A DNA stretch of 64,000 nt from an uncultured Alphaproteobacteria bacterium (GCA_963783265.1 CAWAMU010000017.1:286-64285), one strand, 5' to 3'; shown: positions 3,563 through 48,671, counted from the first letter of the stretch. Translations and numbers: made by a program. Notes: a model not told the origin generated them from the sequence alone.

Positions 3563-4595
3563 ATGAAACATAGGAAAACGTACGCAGAAACCGTGTTCGA
3601 GGCGGAGCTTGCTACCCCGTCTGCGACAATACGCCTGGCGCGTTTTTCGCTGGATCGGCCGACCGATCGGGAATTCCGACGCGACAACAGTTATTGGCTA
3701 AGACATGTGCCTCAGCCCGCGTCCCGAAGAACTGCGAGGCTGCTATTATGATCGCTGGGGACCGCATCGCTCGAGCCTCTGGGAGAAATCTTCCTTTTGC
3801 CTCCGGGCAAGTCCCTTCGATTGCGCACTGAAGGATCGACCCGGCACATTTCCATCGTATGCGAGATCAAGAACGATGCAGTGCAGCGATGGCTGCCGGC
3901 GGACATCAAATGGACAGATCAGCGTCTTACGGCCAGTCTCGACATCGTCGATCCGCATATTCGCGCGTGTCTCTTCCGGCTGGCGCAAGAGGTGCGTCGT
4001 CCGGGCGCTGGCAGTAAAGATCTGGCAAATCCACGTCGTAGGACAGTTGGCGATTGAAGTGGCACGCTTTTGCGAAGCGGTGACCGATGGTCCGGCAGTT
4101 GGTGGTCTCGCTTCGTGGCGGCTGCGCCTTATCGACGAGCGCCTTCATCGATACGGCTCTTCCCCTTTACTAGACGAACTGGCAGAGCTGTGCGGATTGT
4201 CTGTCCGCCAGCTTACTCGGGGTTTCAGTGCCAGCCGGGGCTGCACCGTTGGCAGTTACATAGCATCGATGCGCATTGAGCAGGCCAAGCGACGCCTCGA
4301 CACAAACGAAAGCATCAAGGAGATCGCGGGCCTGCTTCCAGGCTTTCCCTCGCCTTCCGCTTTCTCTTATGCATTTCGCCGCGCAACAGGAAGCACGCCG
4401 AGGCAGTTCCGGCCAGGCAACTGCGATCAAGGCCGATACCCACCGCTGGGTTATCGCCTGGCCGGTAATCTGCATGGCCGGGAATTGCCATTGCGCGGCC
4501 CCTCACGCTCGATGCATTCTCGAAACTATCTCGCCGTTCTACGCCGTAGAGCAGAACAGGCGAATGGCGGTTGGTTGAAAGTCATTCGTCATTAA
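3563..4595 (+). CDS. AraC family transcriptional regulator (frameshifted; true stop probably earlier than 4595)
   Basis: C-terminal double HTH: LDELAELCGLSVRQLTRGF..RIEQAKRRL..SIKEIA..GF.SPSAFSYAFRRATGSTPRQFR. Divergent from the SDR operon. Confidence 0.8.
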
Positions 4596-4862
4596 CGGCG
4601 CAAACGCTTGAGCGCTTCGCCGCGATCTGCCGAACCACAGCACTACAAGCAGAACCCGGATTGCTGCCAAAACGCGAGACCTAATTGTTCCATCCATCAC
4701 AGGCAACCCGGGGTTGGCTGTGCATATCGCCGCTGCGCTCTCTTCTCCGGTAACTTTCGCCTCTCCCGCTTTTCTGGTCTTACGAAATTCGTCGAAATGA
4801 TCGCAGAACGGCAGTGCGCAGGATCTCGTTCGCGCAAGGCTTAGTTCGGTACGGAGAGTGGA

Positions 4863-6391
4863 ATGCTGGGAAGGCAAATGAAGGCCCTCGCTGCGGGATT
4901 GGCAATGACTCTGTCGGGCTGCGCCACTGCCTCTGCCCAGCAGGCTGACACGTTGCAGGAGGCGACGGTCACAGTCGATTTTTCTCAGTCGCGCGGCGAC
5001 TTGCTGCGCACGGAACGGTTCAATACCTGGGACAACGGCGATCCTGAGCCGGATCTGCGCGAGCAGGACATTGCCTTCCTGACCGAGCAGGGCCTTCACG
5101 TCCGAAATCGTGCGTATCGGCATCGGCATCGATGACGAGATGTGCGACCTGCAGGCGCAGACCTGCGACTTTTCGGAGGTGGCCTGGATGTTCGATGCTG
5201 CCGACCTGACAGATTCGCTGGTCGTGCATATTACGCCCGAGGGCCTGTTCGAGGACGACCATCAGCCCGCCGACTGCTGCCCCTGCTGACGCTGGCGATC
5301 CGCGAATTGAAGGCACAGGTGCCAAACGTCGATTACATCGAATCCTTCAACGAGCCGGACTGGGTCGATCACGTCATGCAGGTGCGCATGGGTGACGAGC
5401 CGCGGGTTACGCCGGAGGAACTCTACGACTGGTATGTGCCGTTCTACCAGGCCGTGAACACGGTCAACGCCGGACCTGCATCCGAACGAGCGGATCAGGG
5501 TGGGCGGGCCCACCCTGATGAGCTTCGATCATCAGGGCTGGATCCCGTCGTTCCTCGATGGCTTCGCCGCCGATACCAATCCGGACAAGCGGCTCGATTT
5601 CGTGTCCTGGCATGCATACGGCTATTTCGACGAAAGCACGGGCTATCGGTCCTACGTGTTCTTCAAGGACGATCCGACCATGGTGGCCGATCAGCGCGCG
5701 CGGCTGGATGCCATGCTTAAGGAACGCGGCATCACCACCTACATCCCGGCGCTTGTAACGGAAACGGGCATCTACCCCGGACCAGCCTATGACGATCCCA
5801 ATCCCAGCAGGAACGACTGGGTGCGGCAGGGGCCGGGCGTCATGTCACTGCACTACTGGTATGCCGAGCAGCCCGATATCTACCCCTTCCACTGGACGAT
5901 CCGCCACGCTGGCGAAGGGCGCAAGGACCAGCTCGTCACCCTGCGCGGCGATGACGAGACCAGCCCTGTCGAAACCTTCACGCCCTATGGCAACGCGCTG
6001 CTGATGCAGTCGATGCTGCGCGATGAGCGCGTTGTCGCCGAGTCCGATGCGCTGGTCGATGGCAAGGGCGTCTATGCCATTGCCACAAGCGGCGACAACG
6101 GCGCTGCCATCATGATCTGGAACTACCAGGGTACGGACACGCAGGGCTTCCGCGTGAACCTCGATCTTGGCGGTTTTCCCGCAAATGCGCCCGGCCACGC
6201 TGGCGATCCAGCGGCAGTATCACATCGACGCCGAAACCAGCAATTACTGGACCGATCCTGACAACGCCAACCTGCAACAGGTCGGCGAAACCAGAGTTAC
6301 CCTGGGCAATTCGCATCAGGTGACGATCGACCTGCCAGCCAATGCGATGCATCTGATCACGATGGACATCCAGAGCGACCATGCTGACTAG
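4863..6391 (+). CDS. Putative lipoprotein glycoside hydrolase, clan GH-A (GH39-like), frameshifted
   Basis: Lipobox LSGC after a hydrophobic signal. Motifs ESFNEPD (acid/base), LDFVSWHAY and LVTETG (nucleophile), then a C-terminal beta-rich domain. Spread over four ORF pieces. Confidence 0.6.
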
Positions 6392-6500
6392 GGCAGGCCT
6401 CGTGCGCTTTCCGTTCGCGAAAGAGGAATAAGCGCTTCCATCTCCTCGCCGCTCGCAATCACGCATCGGTGAACACTCCAGTCATAAGAAGAGACAATCG

Positions 6501-28662: not shown

Positions 28663-29364
28663 TTACGTATCAGCAGCCGTTGGTGCGGCCCCCATAAAGT
28701 TCAGCAGGCGCTGCAGCGGGATAGCTACCCGCTCAGCCGATTTCGCATCGGCCAGCGCCAAGTGGACGACATTTTCCCGGCCCAATGCCACAGACAGGGC
28801 CTCCCGGTCCAGTGGCAGGCGTTCACCAGTCCGCCCCGAACCTTCTTCATCAAGGCCAACGCGCCATGCCTGGTCCAGCTTTCGGCGCCCGTCCTCTTTC
28901 GCATCTTCGGCGTGGTAGAGGGCGGCTACCGCCCCCATCCGCGCTTCATTTGCGATGCGATCAGAGCCCAAGATAAGGCGTCCGCTGCGCATTTCGAGGC
29001 CCAACCGGTCAAGCACCGCCTTTTTCAGCGCGCTTTCGGTTCGTGTAGGCAAGTCTTCCGGCACATTGAGGCCACCGGTCTTGCCACCGATCTTGAATGC
29101 GCGGGCCAGCGCGCCCTTCAACCGGCCATTGTCGATGGCAGCAGCCAGCTCGGTCTTCGAAACGCCAATCCAGGCGCCGCGCCCCGGCGCCTTGGCTAGT
29201 GCATCGGGATGCACGTCCCCATCCGGCGAAACGGCAAGGCGCACGAGTTCGTCGCGCGCGCCGATGTTGCCCGTCAGCACGCAACGACGCTCGCTCCCCT
29301 TTGCAGAGGAGACGTCGGCCTCGGTTTTAGGCGAACCTAATGTGTCATTGTGAGGATTCCGCAT
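28663..29364 (-). CDS. DUF448/YlxR-family RNA-binding protein
   Basis: SERRCVLTG..LVRLAVSPDG..KAPGRGAWI, in the canonical position between nusA and infB. Confidence 0.85.
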   Translation of the reverse strand: MRNPHNDTLGSPKTEADVSSAKGSERRCVLTGNIGARDELVRLAVSPDGDVHPDALAKAPGRGAWIGVSKTELAAAIDNGRLKGALARAFKIGGKTGGLNVPEDLPTRTESALKKAVLDRLGLEMRSGRLILGSDRIANEARMGAVAALYHAEDAKEDGRRKLDQAWRVGLDEEGSGRTGERLPLDREALSVALGRENVVHLALADAKSAERVAIPLQRLLNFMGAAPTAADT

Positions 29365-31016
29365 CGGCGGCCTCCTCTGCTTGGGGTTCGGAAGCGGCGG
29401 CAGCAGGTGCAGCCTCTTCCTCGTCCTCGAACCAGTGCGCGCGGGCAGCCATGATGATTTCGTTGCCCTGCTCTTCACTCAAACCGAACATGCCCAGAAC
29501 GCCGCCCTTGTCCTGCTCGCGCTGCGGGCGGCGGACGGGTGGGCCATCGGGGCTGTTGTTGCGGCGACGCGGCGCTTCGCGCTTCTTGGCGATCAGTTCG
29601 TCAGTGGCGAGATCGGCAAGATCGTCCAGCGTCTTGATGCCCGCCTTGCCCAGCACCACCAGCATTTCCTCCCGCAGGTGCGGAAGTTCGGCCAGATCGT
29701 CCTCCACGCCCAGTTCGCGGCGGGTTTCACGATGCGCGGCTTCCTGGCGCTCGAGCGCTTCCTGCGCACGGCTCTGGAGTTCTTCGGCCAGTTCCTCGTC
29801 GAAACCCTCGATGGTCGCAAGCTCGTCCAGCTGCACATAGGCAACCTCTTCCAACTCGGCGAAGCCTTCGGCCACCAGCAGCTGCGAAAGGGTTTCGTCG
29901 ACGTCCAGCTCTTCCTCGAACATCTTGGAGCGCAGGGAAAATTCCTTGCTGCGCTTTCTCCGAGGCTTCTTCCTCGGTCATGATGTCGATCTGGCTGTCG
30001 GTCAGCTGGCTGGCGAGACGCACGTTCTGCCCGCGGCGACCGATGGCCAGCGAAAGCTGATCATCAGGCACGACAACTTCGATGCGGCTCTCGTCCTCAT
30101 CCAGCACGACGCGCGAAACGGTGGCAGGCTGAAGGGCGTTGACCACGAACGTGGCGGTGTCTTCCGACCACGGGATGATATCGATCTTCTCGCCCTGCAA
30201 TTCCTGCACCACGGCCTGCACGCGGCTGCCCTTCATGCCGACGCAGGCGCCGACAGGGTCAATGCTGGAATCGTGGGAGATCACGCCGATCTTGGCGCGG
30301 CTGCCGGGATCGCGGGCGGCGGCCTTGATCTCGATGATGCCATCGTAGATCTCGGGCACTTCCTGCGCGAACAGCTTGCGCATGAAATCGGGGTTTGCGC
30401 GGGAAAGGAAAATCTGCGGACCGCGGTTGTTGCGCTCCACCTTGGAGATCAGTGCGCGCACACGCTCGCCCACGCGGGCGGCTTCGCGCGGGATCTGCTG
30501 GTCGCGGCGGATCACACCCTCGGCACGGCCGAGGTTGACGATCACGTGGCCGAACTCGACCGACTTGATGACGCCGGTAATGACTTCGCCCGCGCGGTCC
30601 TTGAATTCCTCGAACTGGCGCTCACGCTCTGCATCGCGCACCTTCTGGAAGATCACCTGCTTCGCGCTCTGTGCGTCGATGCGGCCAAGATCGTCCATGG
30701 CGGGCAGCGGGTCGACGATGAAGTCGCCCACGGCAGAGCCCGGCTCAAGCTTCTCGGCCTGTTCCAGATCGACCTGCTTGAAGTAGTCTTCCACTTCCTC
30801 GACCACTTCGACGACGCGCCACAGGCGCAGGTCGCCGGTCACCGGGTCAAGCTTGGCCCGAATATCGTTCTCCTGGCCGAAGCGTGCGCGTGCGGCCTTC
30901 TGGATCGCCTCTTCCATCGCTTCGATCACGATGCTCTTGTCGATCATCTTCTCCGACGCGACAGCGTTGGCGATCGCAAGCAGTTCAGCCTTGTTGGCGG
31001 AAATGGGACTGGCCAT
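29345..31016 (-). CDS. nusA: Transcription termination factor NusA (apparent frameshift ~29945)
   Basis: ARDPGSRAKI, DPVGACVGMKGSRVQ, SLAIGRRGQNVRLAS. The acidic-repeat C-terminus is in ORF 29345-29923; an extra A in an AAA run explains the break. Confidence 0.96.
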
Positions 31017-32322: not shown

Positions 32323-33352
32323 CTACTTCTCCTGGCCAATCGCGTGCTTCTTCATCGTATGGCGCAACTGGTCATAGGTAAGGCCAAGGGCCTGGGCGGT
32401 CTGGCGCTGGTTCCAGCGATTGGCACCCAGCGCATGTTCGACGATCGACTTCTCGTGATCGTCGACCGCGGCGCGCAAGTCGGTGATGTCGTCCAGCCGC
32501 GGCCGCGGGGCGGACTGCTGGCGCGCCGACTGGCTGGTATTCTCGGCGCCAGCAGGGGTTGCACCGGGCAGCGGTTTCCACGGCGAATCGAACGGGTCGA
32601 ACACGACTTCGCCGATGGGCTGTTCCCAATTATCCCAGCGATAGACCGCGCGCTCCACCACGTTTCGCAGTTCACGCACATTGCCGGGCCAGGGATGGTT
32701 TTCCAGTCCGCGCGCAACATGATCGGCGAAAGCCGGGCCATTCATCCCAGCTCAGCTCTGCGGCCATGCGCCTGCCGAAATAGTCGGCCAGCACGGGAAT
32801 ATCCCCTTCGCGCACGCGCAGGGGCGGCAGGGTGATGACCTCGAATGTCAGGCGGTCGAGCAGGTCGGCACGGAAGGTGCCTTCGTCCGCGCGGCGCGGC
32901 AGGTCTTCATTGGTGGCAGCCACGATGCGCACATCGACGCGGGTCGGTCGACTGGCACCGATGCGCGTAACCTCGCCATATTCCACCGCCCGCAGCAGCC
33001 GTTCCTGGGCGCCCATGGACAAGGTGCCCAGTTCGTCGAGAAATAACGTGCCCCGGTCGGCTTCCTCGAACCGCCCCTCGCGCGCTCTGGTAGCGCCGGT
33101 GAACGCGCCCTGCTCATGGCCGAACAGTTCGGCCTCGATCAGGGTTTCGGGAAGCGCAGCGCAGTTCATGGTGACCAGCGGCTCTTCCCAGCGATCGGAC
33201 AGGCGGTGCAGGCGTTCGGCGATCAATTCCTTGCCGGTGCCGCGTTCGCCGATTACGAGTACCGGGCGCGCCATCGGCGCGGCGCGGCTGGCCCGCTCCA
33301 CCGCATCGAGAAAGGCGCCGGACTGGCCGATGAACTGGTTATCGCGCTCCAT
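32323..33352 (-). CDS. pspF: Psp operon sigma-54 activator PspF (apparent frameshift ~32740)
   Basis: GERGTGKE, GAFTGA, LFLDE, PWPGNVREL and a C-terminal HTH. No N-terminal regulatory domain. Divergent from pspA. Confidence 0.93.
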
Positions 33353-33361
33353 TGCCAAGAT

Positions 33362-33467
33362 ATAGTGCGATTTCCCAACACTTGGCAATAGACACCAACC
33401 ATCTTTTCTCTTTTCTGCGAAAAAACCGCAGGAATCCGCCATTCCTGAAATTTGGCACGGCTGTTGC
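33362..33467 (+). promoter_or_regulatory. Sigma-54 promoter of the psp operon with candidate activator sites
   Basis: TGGCACGGCTGTTGCA at 33452-33467 (GG-N10-GC). Upstream are ATAGTGCGATTTCCCAA (33362) and TTGGCAATAGACACCAA (33382), candidate PspF sites. Confidence 0.85.
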
Positions 33468-33504
33468 AATTCATGGTGTAGAAAGGGTTCAGGAGGAAAA
33501 ACAC

Positions 33505-33657
33505 ATGTTTGATCGCAGCTTCTTCAACAGCCAACTTGGCCAGGCCGCCATGGTTAGCATCGCCGCGATGATCGCCTTCACCATCTTTGCCGGCATGGAG
33601 CCGGTGGCAGACACGCCAGCCATGCTGGTGGGCCTGCCGACGGTGGAACTGGCGTGA
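33505..33657 (+). CDS. 50-aa hydrophobic protein, first gene of the psp operon
   Basis: AGGAGG RBS. MFDRSFFNSQLGQAAMVSIAAMIAFTIFAGMEP..VELA. The stop overlaps GTG 33654. Confidence 0.7.
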   Translation: MFDRSFFNSQLGQAAMVSIAAMIAFTIFAGMEPVADTPAMLVGLPTVELA

Positions 33658-33794: not shown

Positions 33795-34502
33795 ATGGGT
33801 ATTTTTTCGCGCACCCGTGACATTATCGCCGCCAACTTCAACGAGCTGCTCGACCAGGCGGACGATCCCTCGAAGATGATCCGCATGATCATCCTCGAAA
33901 TGGAGGAAACGCTGGTGGAAGTCCGGGCGAGCGCTGCTCGCACGATTGCCGACCAGAAGGAAATGCACCGCCACACGGTGAAACTGGACCGGCTCCAGTC
34001 CGACTGGGCAGAGAAGGCGCAACTGGCGCTGAGCAAGGATCGCGAAGACCTGGCCCGCGCCGCGCTGATGGAGAAGCGCAAGTCTTCCGACATGTGCGAC
34101 CAGTTGAAGCAGGAAATCGCCGTACTGGACGATGCCCTGCGCGCCTATGACCAGGACATTACCAAGCTGCAGAACCGCCTGCGCGAGGCCCGCAGCCGCC
34201 AGAGCCAGATATCGGCCCGTCTGGAAAGCGCGGAGAACCGCGTGAAGCTGCGCAGCCTGATGACCAATGAACGGGTGGAAGACGCGCACAGCCGCTTCGA
34301 CCAGCTGGAACGCCGGGTGGATTACGCCGAAGGCCGCGCCGATGCCCTGGGTATCGGCCAGAACAAGGCCACCCTCGCCGACGAATTCGCAGCCCTGGAA
34401 GGCGGCGACAAGGTCGACGACGAACTGGAGGAAATGAAGCGCGCGCTCGGCATGGGAAGCCAGGACAAGGGCAGCAGCGCCAAGACTGAAGAAGGGGAAT
34501 AA
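33795..34502 (+). CDS. pspA: Phage shock protein A (possible upstream in-frame start at 33654)
   Basis: MGIFSRTRDIIAANFN..DPSKMIRMIILEMEETLVEVR..KAQLALSKDREDLARAAL. GGAGG precedes ATG 33795. Confidence 0.95.
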   Translation: MGIFSRTRDIIAANFNELLDQADDPSKMIRMIILEMEETLVEVRASAARTIADQKEMHRHTVKLDRLQSDWAEKAQLALSKDREDLARAALMEKRKSSDMCDQLKQEIAVLDDALRAYDQDITKLQNRLREARSRQSQISARLESAENRVKLRSLMTNERVEDAHSRFDQLERRVDYAEGRADALGIGQNKATLADEFAALEGGDKVDDELEEMKRALGMGSQDKGSSAKTEEGE

Positions 34503-34504
34503 TC

Positions 34505-34807
34505 GTGGACATGGAACCAATTTTCATTGTGTCGGCAATCTTCATCGGATTGCCCTGGGTCGTCCTCCACTACGTGACCAAGTGGAAAACCGCTGCCACC
34601 ATCACCACCGATGACGAGGCTCTGCTGGAAGAACTCTACCAGCTGGCCAAGCGGCTGGACGAACGCATGGATACGGTCGAGCGCCTCGTCTCTTCGGACC
34701 ATCCGGATTTCGAGCCCGCCCGCATCCAGCACGACAAGGCCATCGACAACGTACCGCTGCGCGAGCTGGAGGAACTGCTCGCAGAGAAGAAAGGAAACCA
34801 GGCATGA
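34505..34807 (+). CDS. pspB: Phage shock protein B
   Basis: FIGLPWVVLHYVTKWK..LYQLAKRLDERMDTVERLV..PDF. Confidence 0.9.
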   Translation: MDMEPIFIVSAIFIGLPWVVLHYVTKWKTAATITTDDEALLEELYQLAKRLDERMDTVERLVSSDHPDFEPARIQHDKAIDNVPLRELEELLAEKKGNQA

Positions 34808-35178
34808 ACAGCCCCCGCACGAAACTTTACCGCGACAAGGTGAATGGCAAGCTGATGGGCGTCTGCTCCGGTATCGCCGACTACACCGGCGTAAACGTTC
34901 TCTGGATCCGCCTGGGTATGATCATTCTTGCCATAACCCTCGGCTGGCCCATTCTCGCCTACATCGGCGCAGGCTTCCTGCTGAGCAAGAAGCCGCCACA
35001 TCTCTACACCGCGCCCGATGAAACGCAGTATTGGCAGAACGTCCGGCAGAGCCCGAAGCGTACCGCGCGCGAAATCCGCGCCCGGATGAAGGATATCGAT
35101 CGCCGCCTGGCCGATGTGGAAACCTACTACGTTTCCGCCAATCCGCGCCTGTCGCAGGAAATCGAACAACTGCGCTGA
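34804..35178 (+). CDS. pspC: Phage shock protein C
   Basis: LYRDKVNGKLMGVCSGIADY..IRL..IDRRLADVETYYVSANPRLSQEIEQLR. Confidence 0.92.
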   Translation: MNSPRTKLYRDKVNGKLMGVCSGIADYTGVNVLWIRLGMIILAITLGWPILAYIGAGFLLSKKPPHLYTAPDETQYWQNVRQSPKRTAREIRARMKDIDRRLADVETYYVSANPRLSQEIEQLR

Positions 35179-35212
35179 GGGGCGCACCACACCGAGGAAA
35201 AGGGGACGAAAC

Positions 35213-35522
35213 ATGGGTGAGCTGATTCCCATCGTGGCAATCATCATGGGGTGCGGCATTCCGATCACCGCGATCTGGGCCAAGCACAAGCAGAAGATCG
35301 CCGAGATGCAGGTGGATGCCACCGCCGCCAACACCGCCGAGAAGGCCGCTCAATACGCCAGTCGCACCCAGGAGCTGGAAGACCGGGTCCGCGTGCTGGA
35401 GCGCATCGTCACCGACAAGGGCTACGACATCGCCACCCAGATCGAAGCCCTGCGCGACCAGCGCAGCCGTCGATGAAGGCAACGGCGTTCCCCTCGACAT
35501 CGCTCGCAAGGAGAACGTCTGA
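35213..35522 (+). CDS. psp-array small membrane protein 1 (frameshift ~35465)
   Basis: TM helix then LEDRVRVLERIVTDKGYDIATQIEALR. The alternative-frame tail DEGNGVPLDIARKENV ends in a TGA overlapping the next ATG. Confidence 0.75.
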
Positions 35523-35880
35523 TGGATTGGGGCAGCCCGGAATTCATTATCGCGATCGTCGCCCTGTCCACGCTGGGCTGGATCGTGAACAACTGGATAC
35601 GCGCCAAACACGGCTATCCGCTGGAAGACGAGTGGGGCGGCAAGACGCAGCCGCAAAGACAGCCAGGATGCCGCGAAACTGCGCGAACAGAACCAGCAAC
35701 TGCGCGATGTCATGGAACGGATGGAAGACCGCATGATCGTGCTGGAACGCATCGTCACCGACAAGGGCTACACCGTGGCCGAGGAGATCGAGGCGCTGCG
35801 TGACAAGCCCGCCCGCGAAACCCGCGAAACAAGCGACAATGGCGTGCCCTCTGAACATCAGGAACAGGGAACAGGCATAA
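35522..35880 (+). CDS. psp-array small membrane protein 2 (frameshifts ~35655 and ~35850)
   Basis: MDWGSPEFIIAIVALSTLGWIVNNWIRAKHGYPLEDEWGG..MEDRMIVLERIVTDKGYTVAEEIEALR..DNGVPL. TAATG coupling to the next gene. Confidence 0.7.
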
Positions 35881-36198
35881 TGGATTTCGGATACAATCAC
35901 TCCCGCAGTCCTTGGCGTTGGCGTCATCTCGATTTCGATCGGCTGGGTCGTCAACACGTGGATCCGCGTGAATCACGGCTATCCGCTGGAAAACAGCTGG
36001 GGCAAGGCAGTGTATCCCAAGAACGACCAGGCCGCCGAGCGCGTGAAGCTGCTGACCCAGGAAAACGCGGCGCTTCAGGCTGAACTGGGATCGCTGAAGG
36101 ACCGCCTCGCCAACGTGGAGCGGATCGTCACCGACAGCGGCTATCACCTCACCCACGAGATCGAGAGCCTGCGGAGCGACAAGAAGGACGCGAACTGA
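35880..36198 (+). CDS. psp-array small membrane protein 3 (frameshift ~35890)
   Basis: VLGVGVISISIGWVVNTWIRVNHGYPLENSWGK..LKDRLANVERIVTDSGYHLTHEIESLR. TGATG coupling. Confidence 0.72.
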
Positions 36199-36498
36199 TG
36201 GATATGAACCTGATTGTCATCTTCACCTTCATCCTGCTGGCCGCCGGCCTGGTGTTCGCGATGGCGCACAAGTTTCACCAGCGCACCGTAGAGCATGAGG
36301 AACGCAAGCTGGAACTGAAGGCCCGCATTGCAGAGGCCAAGGCGCAGGAAGGCTGAAGTGCGGCAGGAATTGATGCAATATCTGGAGGACCGGATGCGGG
36401 TGATCGAACGGATCGTGACCGACCCCACGGCCGATCTTTCGCGCCAGATCGAGAATCTGCGCGCAGACGAGGTCGCCCGGCAGGAGAAGGCATCGTGA
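36198..36498 (+). CDS. psp-array small membrane protein 4 (frameshift ~36350)
   Basis: MDMNLIVIFTFILLAAGLVFAMAHKF..YLEDRMRVIERIVTDPTADLSRQIENLR. Not in the supplied ORF track. Confidence 0.7.
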
Positions 36499-36748
36499 GC
36501 ATGTGGGCGCATGATCTTCCTGATCGTACTGGTCGAGCATCGCCTTCGCCGCCTGGAAGCGGTCGCAGGACGCAAGGCAGGGTGTCATCCGCGACAATCG
36601 CGGTAACCCAATTGCCGATACACAGCGCGAGGCAGAGCTTCAGCGGGAAGTCGAAGAACTGCGCGAGCGGATAAAAGTACTTGAACGTATCGCCACCGAT
36701 CCGGCGCGCCGGACGGCCGAGGAAATTGAAAAGCTGCGCGACGAGTAA
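36495..36748 (+). CDS. psp-array small membrane protein 5 (N-terminal frameshifts)
   Basis: GTGA coupling. MIFLIVLV-SIAFAAWKRSQ..LRERIKVLERIATDPARRTAEEIEKLRDE. Confidence 0.68.
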
Positions 36749-36786
36749 TCGTCGCTGCACCCAGTGAAACTTGCAGGGAGGACCAA

Positions 36787-37026
36787 ATGACGCAAATCGA
36801 CCTGTTGTTCGCCGCCAGCAGCCTGCTCGCGATAGCCATGCTCAGCGCCTCTGCGCTGATGGGCTGGCAGGGATGGCTTGCCCTGAAACGGCGCGAGCTG
36901 GAAATGCATCGCACGCCGCCTGAACTGGAAGGCGGATCGCGCGAAGGCATGGCCCGGATCGAGATTGCCGACCTGAAGGAACGCATCCGCAAGCTGGAAG
37001 CCATCGCGAACGGGGTGGACCTCTGA
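36787..37026 (+). CDS. psp-array small membrane protein 6
   Basis: GGAGG RBS. TM helix then IADLKERIRKLEAIANGVDL, a shortened form of the motif. Confidence 0.72.
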   Translation: MTQIDLLFAASSLLAIAMLSASALMGWQGWLALKRRELEMHRTPPELEGGSREGMARIEIADLKERIRKLEAIANGVDL

Positions 37027-37040
37027 CGCGCAGCCACTAG

Positions 37041-37457
37041 ATGGCATCCATGCGAACACTTGAAGACATCCAGGAAGAATACGAATTTCTCGAAGGCGAT
37101 GAACGCTATCGGCTGCTGATAGAGCTTGGCCGCGAGCTGGACGAGATGCCCGCCGCGCTGAAAACCGATGCCACGCTGGTGCGCGGCTGCTCGGCGCAGG
37201 TCTGGGTCTATCCCACCGAAGAGGCAGGCCAGCTGCATTTCCTGGCAGACAGCAATGCTGCCATCACCAAGGGCATCGTCGCGCTGGTAATCTCTGCCGT
37301 GCAGGACAAGCCCGCAAACGACGTGGCGCAGATGGACATCGCCGACGCGCTGGCCCCGTTTGACCTGAAGAACCAGCTTTCCTCCAACCGCACCCAGGGC
37401 GTGCCCAACATGATCGCGCTGGTGCAGGATCATGCCGCCCGGATTGCGCAGGGCTGA
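37041..37457 (+). CDS. sufE: SufE family Fe-S metabolism protein
   Basis: RYRLLIELGREL..VRGCSAQVW..ADSNAAITKGIV..LSSNRTQG. Confidence 0.88.
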   Translation: MASMRTLEDIQEEYEFLEGDERYRLLIELGRELDEMPAALKTDATLVRGCSAQVWVYPTEEAGQLHFLADSNAAITKGIVALVISAVQDKPANDVAQMDIADALAPFDLKNQLSSNRTQGVPNMIALVQDHAARIAQG

Positions 37458-37458
37458 C

Positions 37459-37810
37459 ATGGCGCGCCCGCTGTGGATGGCAGCGGGGATCGTCTGCTTT
37501 GTACTGGGCTGGATCGGAATGGTGTTGCCGATCATGCCCGGCTTCGTGTTCCTGCTGGGCGCATTGTTCTGCTTTGCACGGGGCAATCCGAAGTGGGAAG
37601 CGAAGATGCTGGATCATCCCACCTACGGCCCTGCCTTGCGGGACTGGCGCGAACATCGCCGTATCGCGCGCAGGAGCAAACTTGCAGCCTTGGGATTAAT
37701 GGCCGTGGCCGCTGTGTCTGGCTGGAGTGGCCGCAGGTTTTCCGGTGGCCATCGTTCCAATCGCGATCATGGCGCTTGTGGGCGGATGGATCTGGACCAG
37801 GCCGGAATAA
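37459..37810 (+). CDS. YbaN/DUF454 family membrane protein (frameshift ~37720)
   Basis: LGWIGMVLPIMPGFVFLLGALFCFARG..MLDHPTYGPALRDW..RRSK. Confidence 0.8.
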
Positions 37811-48110: not shown

Positions 48111-48332
48111 TCAGTCCGCCAGCAGCCAGATCGCTAGGTAGATGAGGATGAAGGTGCCGAACCCGGCGACCGCACCAACGGCGAAGATGATACGCACGAT
48201 GAGCGGGTCCATCCCAATGTATTTGGCAATACCGCCGCACACGCCGGCGATCTTGCCGTTGGTCTTGTCGAGGCGGAACTTCTTCTGTCCCGACAACCCT
48301 ACGGGATTGTCTCTGCGGTCAAGGTTGCTCAT
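48111..48332 (-). CDS. Stand-alone PspC-domain protein
   Basis: FRLDKTNGKIAGVCGGIAKYIGMDPLIVRIIF..ILIYLAIWLL. Confidence 0.88.
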   Translation of the reverse strand: MSNLDRRDNPVGLSGQKKFRLDKTNGKIAGVCGGIAKYIGMDPLIVRIIFAVGAVAGFGTFILIYLAIWLLAD

Positions 48333-48451
48333 GCCAGCAAGCCTACGACGGTGGTTGCGTGGGGGTTGGCAAAGCTGCTTACCAGCATGGTGAAAGTAAC
48401 GGCCACGGCGGCGAGGCCGGCCATCAGCTTGTTCTGGAATTCGTTGGTCAT
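48329..48451 (-). CDS. 40-aa hydrophobic peptide
   Basis: AAGGAG RBS. MTNEFQNKLMAGLAAVAVTFTMLVSSFANPHATTVVGLLA. ATGA overlap with the PspC-domain gene. Confidence 0.75.
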   Translation of the reverse strand: MTNEFQNKLMAGLAAVAVTFTMLVSSFANPHATTVVGLLA

Positions 48452-48490: not shown

Positions 48491-48619
48491 TCAGGCAAGA
48501 ATGCTGGCGAAGATGCTCGCTTCGGGTGTCGAGAAGCTGCTGACGAGGATCGTGGTGGTCACGATAATTGCCGAAAGAGCAGCGGTGATGCGAGCGGCGA
48601 AGTCATTGGTGAAAGTCAT
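48491..48619 (-). CDS. 42-aa hydrophobic peptide, paralogue of the 40-aa peptide
   Basis: GAGGG RBS. MTFTNDFAARITAALSAIIVTTTILVSSFSTPEASIFASILA. Confidence 0.75.
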   Translation of the reverse strand: MTFTNDFAARITAALSAIIVTTTILVSSFSTPEASIFASILA

Positions 48620-48671
48620 TTTGTTTCCCTCTTGTGTTAGATCGGAACCATTCCGTCCCATGCACCAAACA

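Follow-up and report, generated by a model that had tools for sequence, protein, structure and literature searches.

The psp locus and its small-gene array

We analysed a psp locus in which a divergently transcribed pspF, a leader ORF, pspABC and a sufE-like gene accompany six small tandem genes, here called g1 to g6 (Table 1; the window is the whole 64,000-nucleotide stretch of DNA that was analysed). The pspF orthologue of the relative L001 (GCA_947499975.1, 87% nucleotide identity) encodes the Sigma54_activat and HTH_8 domains, and L001 PspF was detected in the window by tblastn as two pieces, in frames -1 and -2. The leader peptide shows 84% amino acid identity to its L001 counterpart and is conserved among the relatives. 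The tail of the window PspC can be aligned with the profile of the small proteins.

Table 1. Genes and features of the psp locus and other relevant positions in the window; limits of g1 to g5 are those after frame repair
Feature	Position	Strand	Remarks
nusA	29348-31016		split by a single frameshift near 29956
pspF, sigma-54 enhancer-binding activator	32323-33367	-	divergent from the psp operon; assembly frameshift near 32736
Sigma-54 type promoter, TGGCAC-ggctg-TTGCA	33453-33468	+	TGGCAC-N5-TTGCA; direct sequence reading
Leader ORF	33505-33657	+	50-aa hydrophobic membrane peptide, between the sigma-54 promoter and pspA
pspA	33795-34502	+	TIGR02977, 277 bits; PF04012
pspB, canonical	34505-34807	+	TIGR02976, 90 bits; PF06667, 72 bits
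pspC	34804-35178	+	PspC domain and C-terminal PspB-like tail (IDRRLADVETYYVSANPRLSQEIEQLR); TIGR02978, 126 bits
g1, PspB-like paralogue	35213-35522	+	+1 frameshift near 35466
g2, PspB-like paralogue	35522-35880	+	frameshifts near 35650 and 35846
g3, PspB-like paralogue	35880-36198	+	frameshift near 35893
g4, PspB-like paralogue	36198-36498	+	frameshift near 36360
g5, PspB-like paralogue	36495-36748	+	frameshifts near 36508 and 36536
g6, distant short paralogue	36787-37026	+	first motif half (LKERIRKLEAIA) only; intact in the assembly
sufE-like gene	37041-37457	+	conserved downstream neighbour; PF02657 in the L001 orthologue; synteny
DUF454 gene	37459-37807		split by a single frameshift near 37720
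PspC-domain gene, 73 aa	48111-48332	-	second, unlinked copy without the C-terminal tail
Two small ORFs	48329-48451; 48491-48661		hydrophobic peptides of ~40-56 aa preceding the 73-aa PspC-domain gene

The sequence-only reading had described six small proteins, each with one TM helix at the N-terminus, a coiled coil and a common motif. We recovered this tandem arrangement, in which a long cytoplasmic helix follows the membrane helix. All eight motif strings that it quoted, including those of PspC and PspB, are present in the three-frame translation of positions 35150-37060, and the stop/start overlaps by which it had chained the genes were all located in the window sequence (TGATG at 35520 and 36196, TAATG at 35878, GTGA at 36495). 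The juxtamembrane motif of g2 is W-I-R-x-K-H-G-Y-P-L-E, g3 is the class with the highest conservation across genera, and g6 takes the final array position throughout the locus maps, adjoining sufE.

The N-terminal flanks of the small proteins are short and acidic. Among 146 family sequences, K+R average 0.14 ahead of the membrane helix and 3.28 over the 15 residues that follow; the positive-inside bias was found in 98% of them, and no second hydrophobic segment was detected in the set. Because of this charge distribution around the hydrophobic segment, the small proteins are predicted to be single-pass inner-membrane anchors, N-out/C-in and uncleaved, like PspB. Cleaved signal peptides, the label given to such N-termini in a table published in 2024, were considered and rejected on the basis of the charge distribution. 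An AF2 model of g3, built from a 51-sequence alignment, gave a helix at residues 2-31, a low-confidence loop at 32-47 and a long helix at 48-103 (pLDDT 81-94). The g3 loop motif GYPLENSWGK is highly conserved among the g3 orthologues, with G-Y-P-L and W-G nearly invariant.

Coding status of the array

Only g6 is intact among the six small genes of the window assembly. We aligned the DNA of the window with that of four relatives and detected seven insertions present in the window only, all net +1, at approximately the g1 to g5 sites of Table 1. At the same position L001 has six intact genes (102, 122, 104, 99, 78 and 83 aa). The seven window-only insertions and the intact L001 genes justify the frame repairs made in the sequence-only reading. 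Measured against L001, the in-frame pieces of the small genes have a dN/dS of 0.16, and the neighbouring pspA, pspB, pspC, sufE and leader have one of 0.12; the array is under strong purifying selection.

Since the genes are intact in the relatives and their dN/dS is 0.16, the breaks in g1 to g5 are most likely insertion-type assembly errors, and the same dN/dS together with the broken nusA, pspF and DUF454 genes makes them look like assembly indels and not like decay. The frameshift density is about 10 times higher within g1 to g5 than in the flanking 10 kb (7 per ~1.1 kb versus 3 per ~10 kb), which would be expected if the array in the window genome consisted of true pseudogenes, with seven genuine frameshifts and products that are no longer made. 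We consider this very unlikely, since every one of the seven events is a net +1 insertion, the pieces contain no in-frame stops or deletions, the small-gene dN/dS is like that of the neighbours, and the genes are intact in every relative examined. The nusA, pspF and DUF454 genes, which lie outside the array, are broken as well, and nusA is essential in E. coli. Programmed or real frameshifting was also considered and was rejected because of the broken nusA, the +1 sense of all events and the purifying selection. A run search for the source reads of the window strain gave relatives only, and the best run contained 10% of the sampled words.

Relationship to PspB and to the PspC tail

The small proteins share the motif L-x-[DE]-R-x-x-x-[LV]-E-R-I-[VA]-T-D...EIExLR. 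The PspB-type zipper core, L-x-[DE]-R-x-x-x-[LV]-E-R-I, is present in all six, and the second half, T-D-x-x-x-x-[LIV]-x-x-[EQ]-I-E-x-L-R, as at the PspC C-terminus, in five (g6 lacks it). For the comparison of the paralogues, 146 family members were gathered from related loci and used for leave-one-class-out profiles. With the other five classes as the profile, each of L001 g1 to g5 is recovered at E 4e-16 or better and L001 g6 at E 6.7e-5 (Z=3000), and by this measure the similarity among the six paralogues exceeds chance. The g6 protein, with the first half of the motif and its weaker E-value against the other classes, is indeed the shortened copy that had been described, and the distant member of the set.

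None of the repaired small proteins reaches the curated cut-offs of PF06667, TIGR02976 or TIGR02978 (the best small-protein scores are 13.1 bits versus a cut-off of 25.6 for PF06667, and 19.0 versus 51.7 for TIGR02976), so their membership in the PspB family rests on profile-profile evidence. The sub-threshold top NCBIfam matches of g1 to g5 are the C-terminal part of PspC and PspB. TIGR02978 matches g1 to g4 at E 1e-4 to 4e-3 and g5 at E 0.5; the alignments of g1, g2, g3 and g5 cover model positions ~68-121, which is the tail, and that of g4 starts at 42, with the last membrane helix included. The Pfam scan gave no match of the small proteins to the PspC domain itself (PF04024), and neither PspD nor PspG was among the Pfam or NCBIfam matches at E up to 10.

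We compared the 146 family members by hhalign with 36 PspC (95.5%, E 1.6e-8, 66 columns), with the PspC tails alone (94.6%, E 7.3e-8, 41 columns) and with 35 PspB (91.7%, E 7.8e-7, 44 columns). The direct comparison of PspB with the PspC tail gave 2-7%, E 0.005-0.02 and 25-27 columns. Helical, charge-rich segments can inflate profile scores, and the controls argue against such inflation here: the alignments gave E 1e-3 to 2e-2 when reversed, and E 0.007 to 0.8 in twenty shuffles of their columns. The family HMM matches E. coli PspB at residues 6-65 of 74 (29.4 bits), the membrane helix included, and E. coli PspC at residues 75-113 (9.9 bits), overlapping LeuZ (77-98). A profile from an 11-sequence family alignment matches some sphingomonad PspB and PspC directly (E<1e-3). 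Judged from these profiles, the motif is a homologue of both PspB and the C-terminal tail of PspC, as the sequence-only reading had suspected, and the small-protein family bridges the two. Since the HMM matches PspB nearly end to end and also the PspC tail, the small proteins have a PspB-like architecture in which the helix runs into an ending of the PspC-tail type.

The Pfam matches are all sub-threshold and occur mixed with those to generic coiled-coil families (ZapB, bZIP), as would be seen if the shared motif were only a convergent coiled-coil composition and the genes unrelated passengers beside pspABC. This is extremely improbable in our view. In hhalign the family E-values surpass those of the reversed or column-shuffled controls by 4-5 orders of magnitude, the match to E. 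coli PspB is full-length with the membrane helix included, the genes follow pspC in every family-f1 locus that was mapped (at least 16 genera), and in a relative the genes have a transcript in common with pspABC.

The small proteins resemble PspB of E. coli and Yersinia enterocolitica in length (~75-120 aa), in the N-terminal membrane helix followed by a cytoplasmic helix, in the core L-x-x-R-x-x-x-L-E-x-I and in the gene location within a PspF/sigma-54 operon. They differ from PspB in scoring far under the family cut-offs (PF06667, TIGR02976), in having the PspC-type second half TD..EIExLR where E. coli PspB ends with AEHPNW, and in occurring as several copies per operon besides the canonical PspB. 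The family has its best profile match in the LeuZ region at the PspC C-terminus, with which it shares the pattern E-R-[IY]-V-T-[DS]-x-x-[YF]-x-L, also found in E. coli PspC (MERYVTSDTFTL); the small proteins differ from PspC by lacking the PspC domain, and PspA binding by their tail is putative.

The same layout has been catalogued already. Ravi et al. 2024 (mSystems, PMC11237479) list the context of Erythrobacter litoralis AOL22920.1 as "PspB duplicates" in their Table S3 and read the PspC tail as a divergent PspB domain, so the layout, which the sequence-only reading did not know to be characterised, has a published description. The E. litoralis entry comes from the same bacterial group and has the divergent pspF, a small gene X, pspA, pspB, pspC with a PspB-like tail, and a run of small genes that encode a hydrophobic N-terminus and a PspB-like part; the window leader peptide corresponds to X. 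The entry has five extra genes, whereas the window has six and the relatives have 3-8. Four N-termini are given as SIG in that survey, whereas the charge pattern described above points to uncleaved N-out/C-in anchors. The window fits the architecture of PspB duplicates in the operon, with the divergent pspF, X-pspA-pspB-pspC (plus PspB tail) and at least two small PspB-like genes. The survey (PMC11237479) presents the PspB-duplicate layout without functional, expression or distribution analysis.

Transcription and distribution of the array

No terminator-like site was detected on the + strand between pspC and sufE in the window. The RNA evidence comes from a relative: marine metatranscriptomes, which contain 34-53% of the sampled words from the Qipengyuania flava locus (L064), were mapped onto this orthologous locus as assembled contigs, not as reads, and some DNA carry-over is possible. 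Contigs from four runs start at L064 positions 1579-1606, that is 24-51 nt past the -12 element of TGGCACaccgcTTGC (1541-1555), the Q. flava counterpart of the window's sigma-54 promoter. One contig (1593-4992) extends from the leader into g6 and another (4286-6421) from g4 through sufE and the DUF454 gene; the leader peptide of Q. flava is covered by RNA contigs. In the X14 data the word depth is 1487 for pspABC, 1326 for g2-g3 and 565 from g4 to ~6420, compared to 70-85 beyond ~6420 and 41 for pspF, which in Q. flava lies on separate and far shallower contigs. These data support a single sigma-54 transcript that includes pspABC and all six genes in the Q. flava-like relative. The sequence-only reading had proposed that the small genes extend the psp operon, and both the lack of a terminator between pspC and sufE and the contigs spanning from the promoter through g1 to g6 in the relative agree with it. 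The sufE-like gene is probably in the same transcript as the array.

As separate observations, the psp transcript may extend into both the sufE-like and the DUF454 genes, and in X14 a 172-nt contig at L064 3550-3721, covering the g1 3' end and the g2 start, has a depth of 5098, compared to ~1400 on both sides. This contig may be a stable fragment, or its depth may be summed over organisms or paralogues at the conserved sequence coding for the motif.

The family was detected in 263 of the 301 genomes of the order to which the window belongs (78 of 86 genera), and is nearly absent from the other Alphaproteobacteria, where only four of about 298 gave a match, one each. A count of the copies per genome, which the sequence-only reading had called for, gave mostly 3-8 in the window's own family and 0-3 in the other families of the order; within the genome of the window, the members are confined to this one cluster. 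At least 543 matching stretches were found in species-representative genomes by the g1-g3 alignment search, and the named records belong to Aurantiacibacter, Erythrobacter, Qipengyuania, Citromicrobium, Altererythrobacter, Novosphingobium, Sphingopyxis and Sphingomonas. Homologues in related genomes, expected earlier as hypothetical proteins, are thus widespread.

According to the gene maps (more than 30 loci, at least 16 genera), the layout pspF / pspABC / small genes / sufE is kept throughout the family, the leader ORF having been checked in close relatives, and several genera retain the gene order g1-g2-g3-g4-g5-g6. By these comparisons the array of pspF, leader-pspABC, 3-8 small genes and sufE is conserved across Sphingomonadaceae and Erythrobacteraceae. 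The "amplified" set of the earlier description, if recent amplification is meant, does not agree with these maps, by which the array is an old, maintained and order-conserved set of paralogues across the family.

PspC-domain and PspB-like genes were also observed in other arrangements. Four loci from another family of the order (L036, L040, L051 and L053) have the gene order pspA, pspB, pspC (135 aa), a short PspC-domain gene (75-84 aa) and a PspB-like gene (90 aa), which resembles a pspC duplicate divided between two genes, one with the domain and one with the tail. One idea is that tail-less PspC-domain proteins, such as the unlinked 73-aa protein in the window, and tail-only proteins are split PspC variants that pair in trans. 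PspB-like small genes, single or in pairs, occur in ten further loci from the other families of the order (L035, L037-L039, L041-L044, L046 and L047); no psp genes were detected within their 1.5-kb flanks, and they may be orphan copies outside the operon.

Proposed role of the PspB-like paralogues

We suggest that the six genes encode divergent PspB paralogues in a PspF/sigma-54-driven pspABC operon, which would add tail helices at the membrane, and we consider this interpretation likely as a whole. Its two basic parts, the PspB-like identity and the operon membership, are very probable. The more specific proposal that the small proteins are regulatory or PspA-recruiting modules is tentative, with a chance that we place slightly short of even. 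The overall interpretation of the sequence-only reading is thereby partly supported.

Work on E. coli and Yersinia assigns both PspA binding and PspF release to the PspC tail, with PspB as the partner of PspC (PMC3068692; PMC5596341); without the PspC C-terminal region that includes LeuZ (77-98), PspA is not bound (Jovanovic et al. 2010, PMC3068692). Because the PspC C-terminal region binds PspA and PspB partners PspC, the extra proteins most likely present the same type of helix. Each paralogue would present a helix of the PspB/PspC-tail type at the inner membrane face, as a possible partner for PspC, PspB or PspA. In this way the array would increase both the number and the variety of the membrane anchors that trigger the response or keep PspA at the membrane, and the differing membrane and juxtamembrane segments might provide differing inputs or partners. 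We found nothing relevant in the literature on psp expression or function in sphingomonads, and no experiments on a PspA-recruiting or multi-input role of such small proteins in the literature searched.

The main rival to regulatory or PspA-recruiting modules is a pure effector role, in which the PspB homologues are co-induced effectors, not sensors or PspA recruiters, and act by membrane insertion or by binding mislocalised envelope proteins, without feedback on PspF. PspD and PspG of E. coli are proposed to insert into the membrane, and PspBC bind secretins. The effector role agrees with transcription of the small genes in the relative at about the pspABC level, as expected for bulk effectors, with the effector role of Yersinia PspBC that is independent of regulation (PMC5596341), and with the conserved juxtamembrane segment of g2 and g3 (GYPLENSWGK), which could bind a non-Psp partner. 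We nevertheless judge it unlikely, since the best-conserved part of the small proteins is the helix that PspC needs for PspA binding, and they are without similarity to PspD or PspG.

Going further than the recruiting modules, the array could be a combinatorial multi-input switch, in which each membrane/juxtamembrane segment senses a different envelope perturbation or client and the paralogues compete via the common tail for PspC, PspB or PspA. An example of such a sensing segment would be the GYPLE..WG loop, which is invariant in g2 and g3. We regard this extension of the model as doubtful; if true, it would represent a multi-input sensing logic that is not known in the enterobacterial Psp system.

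The six "hypothetical" fragments of the window are better annotated as PspB-family proteins, and the assembly needs polishing. To our knowledge, the sensing of membrane damage by PspB and PspC and the hand-over of PspA are not settled even for E. coli and Yersinia. Differential binding of PspA or PspC by the paralogues, if it occurs, would reveal which tail residues matter and would show whether the input specificity lies in the membrane segment. The order keeps 3-8 extra PspB-like, PspC-tailed proteins together in a single operon with high expression, which amounts to a sensor dissected by nature into its modules.
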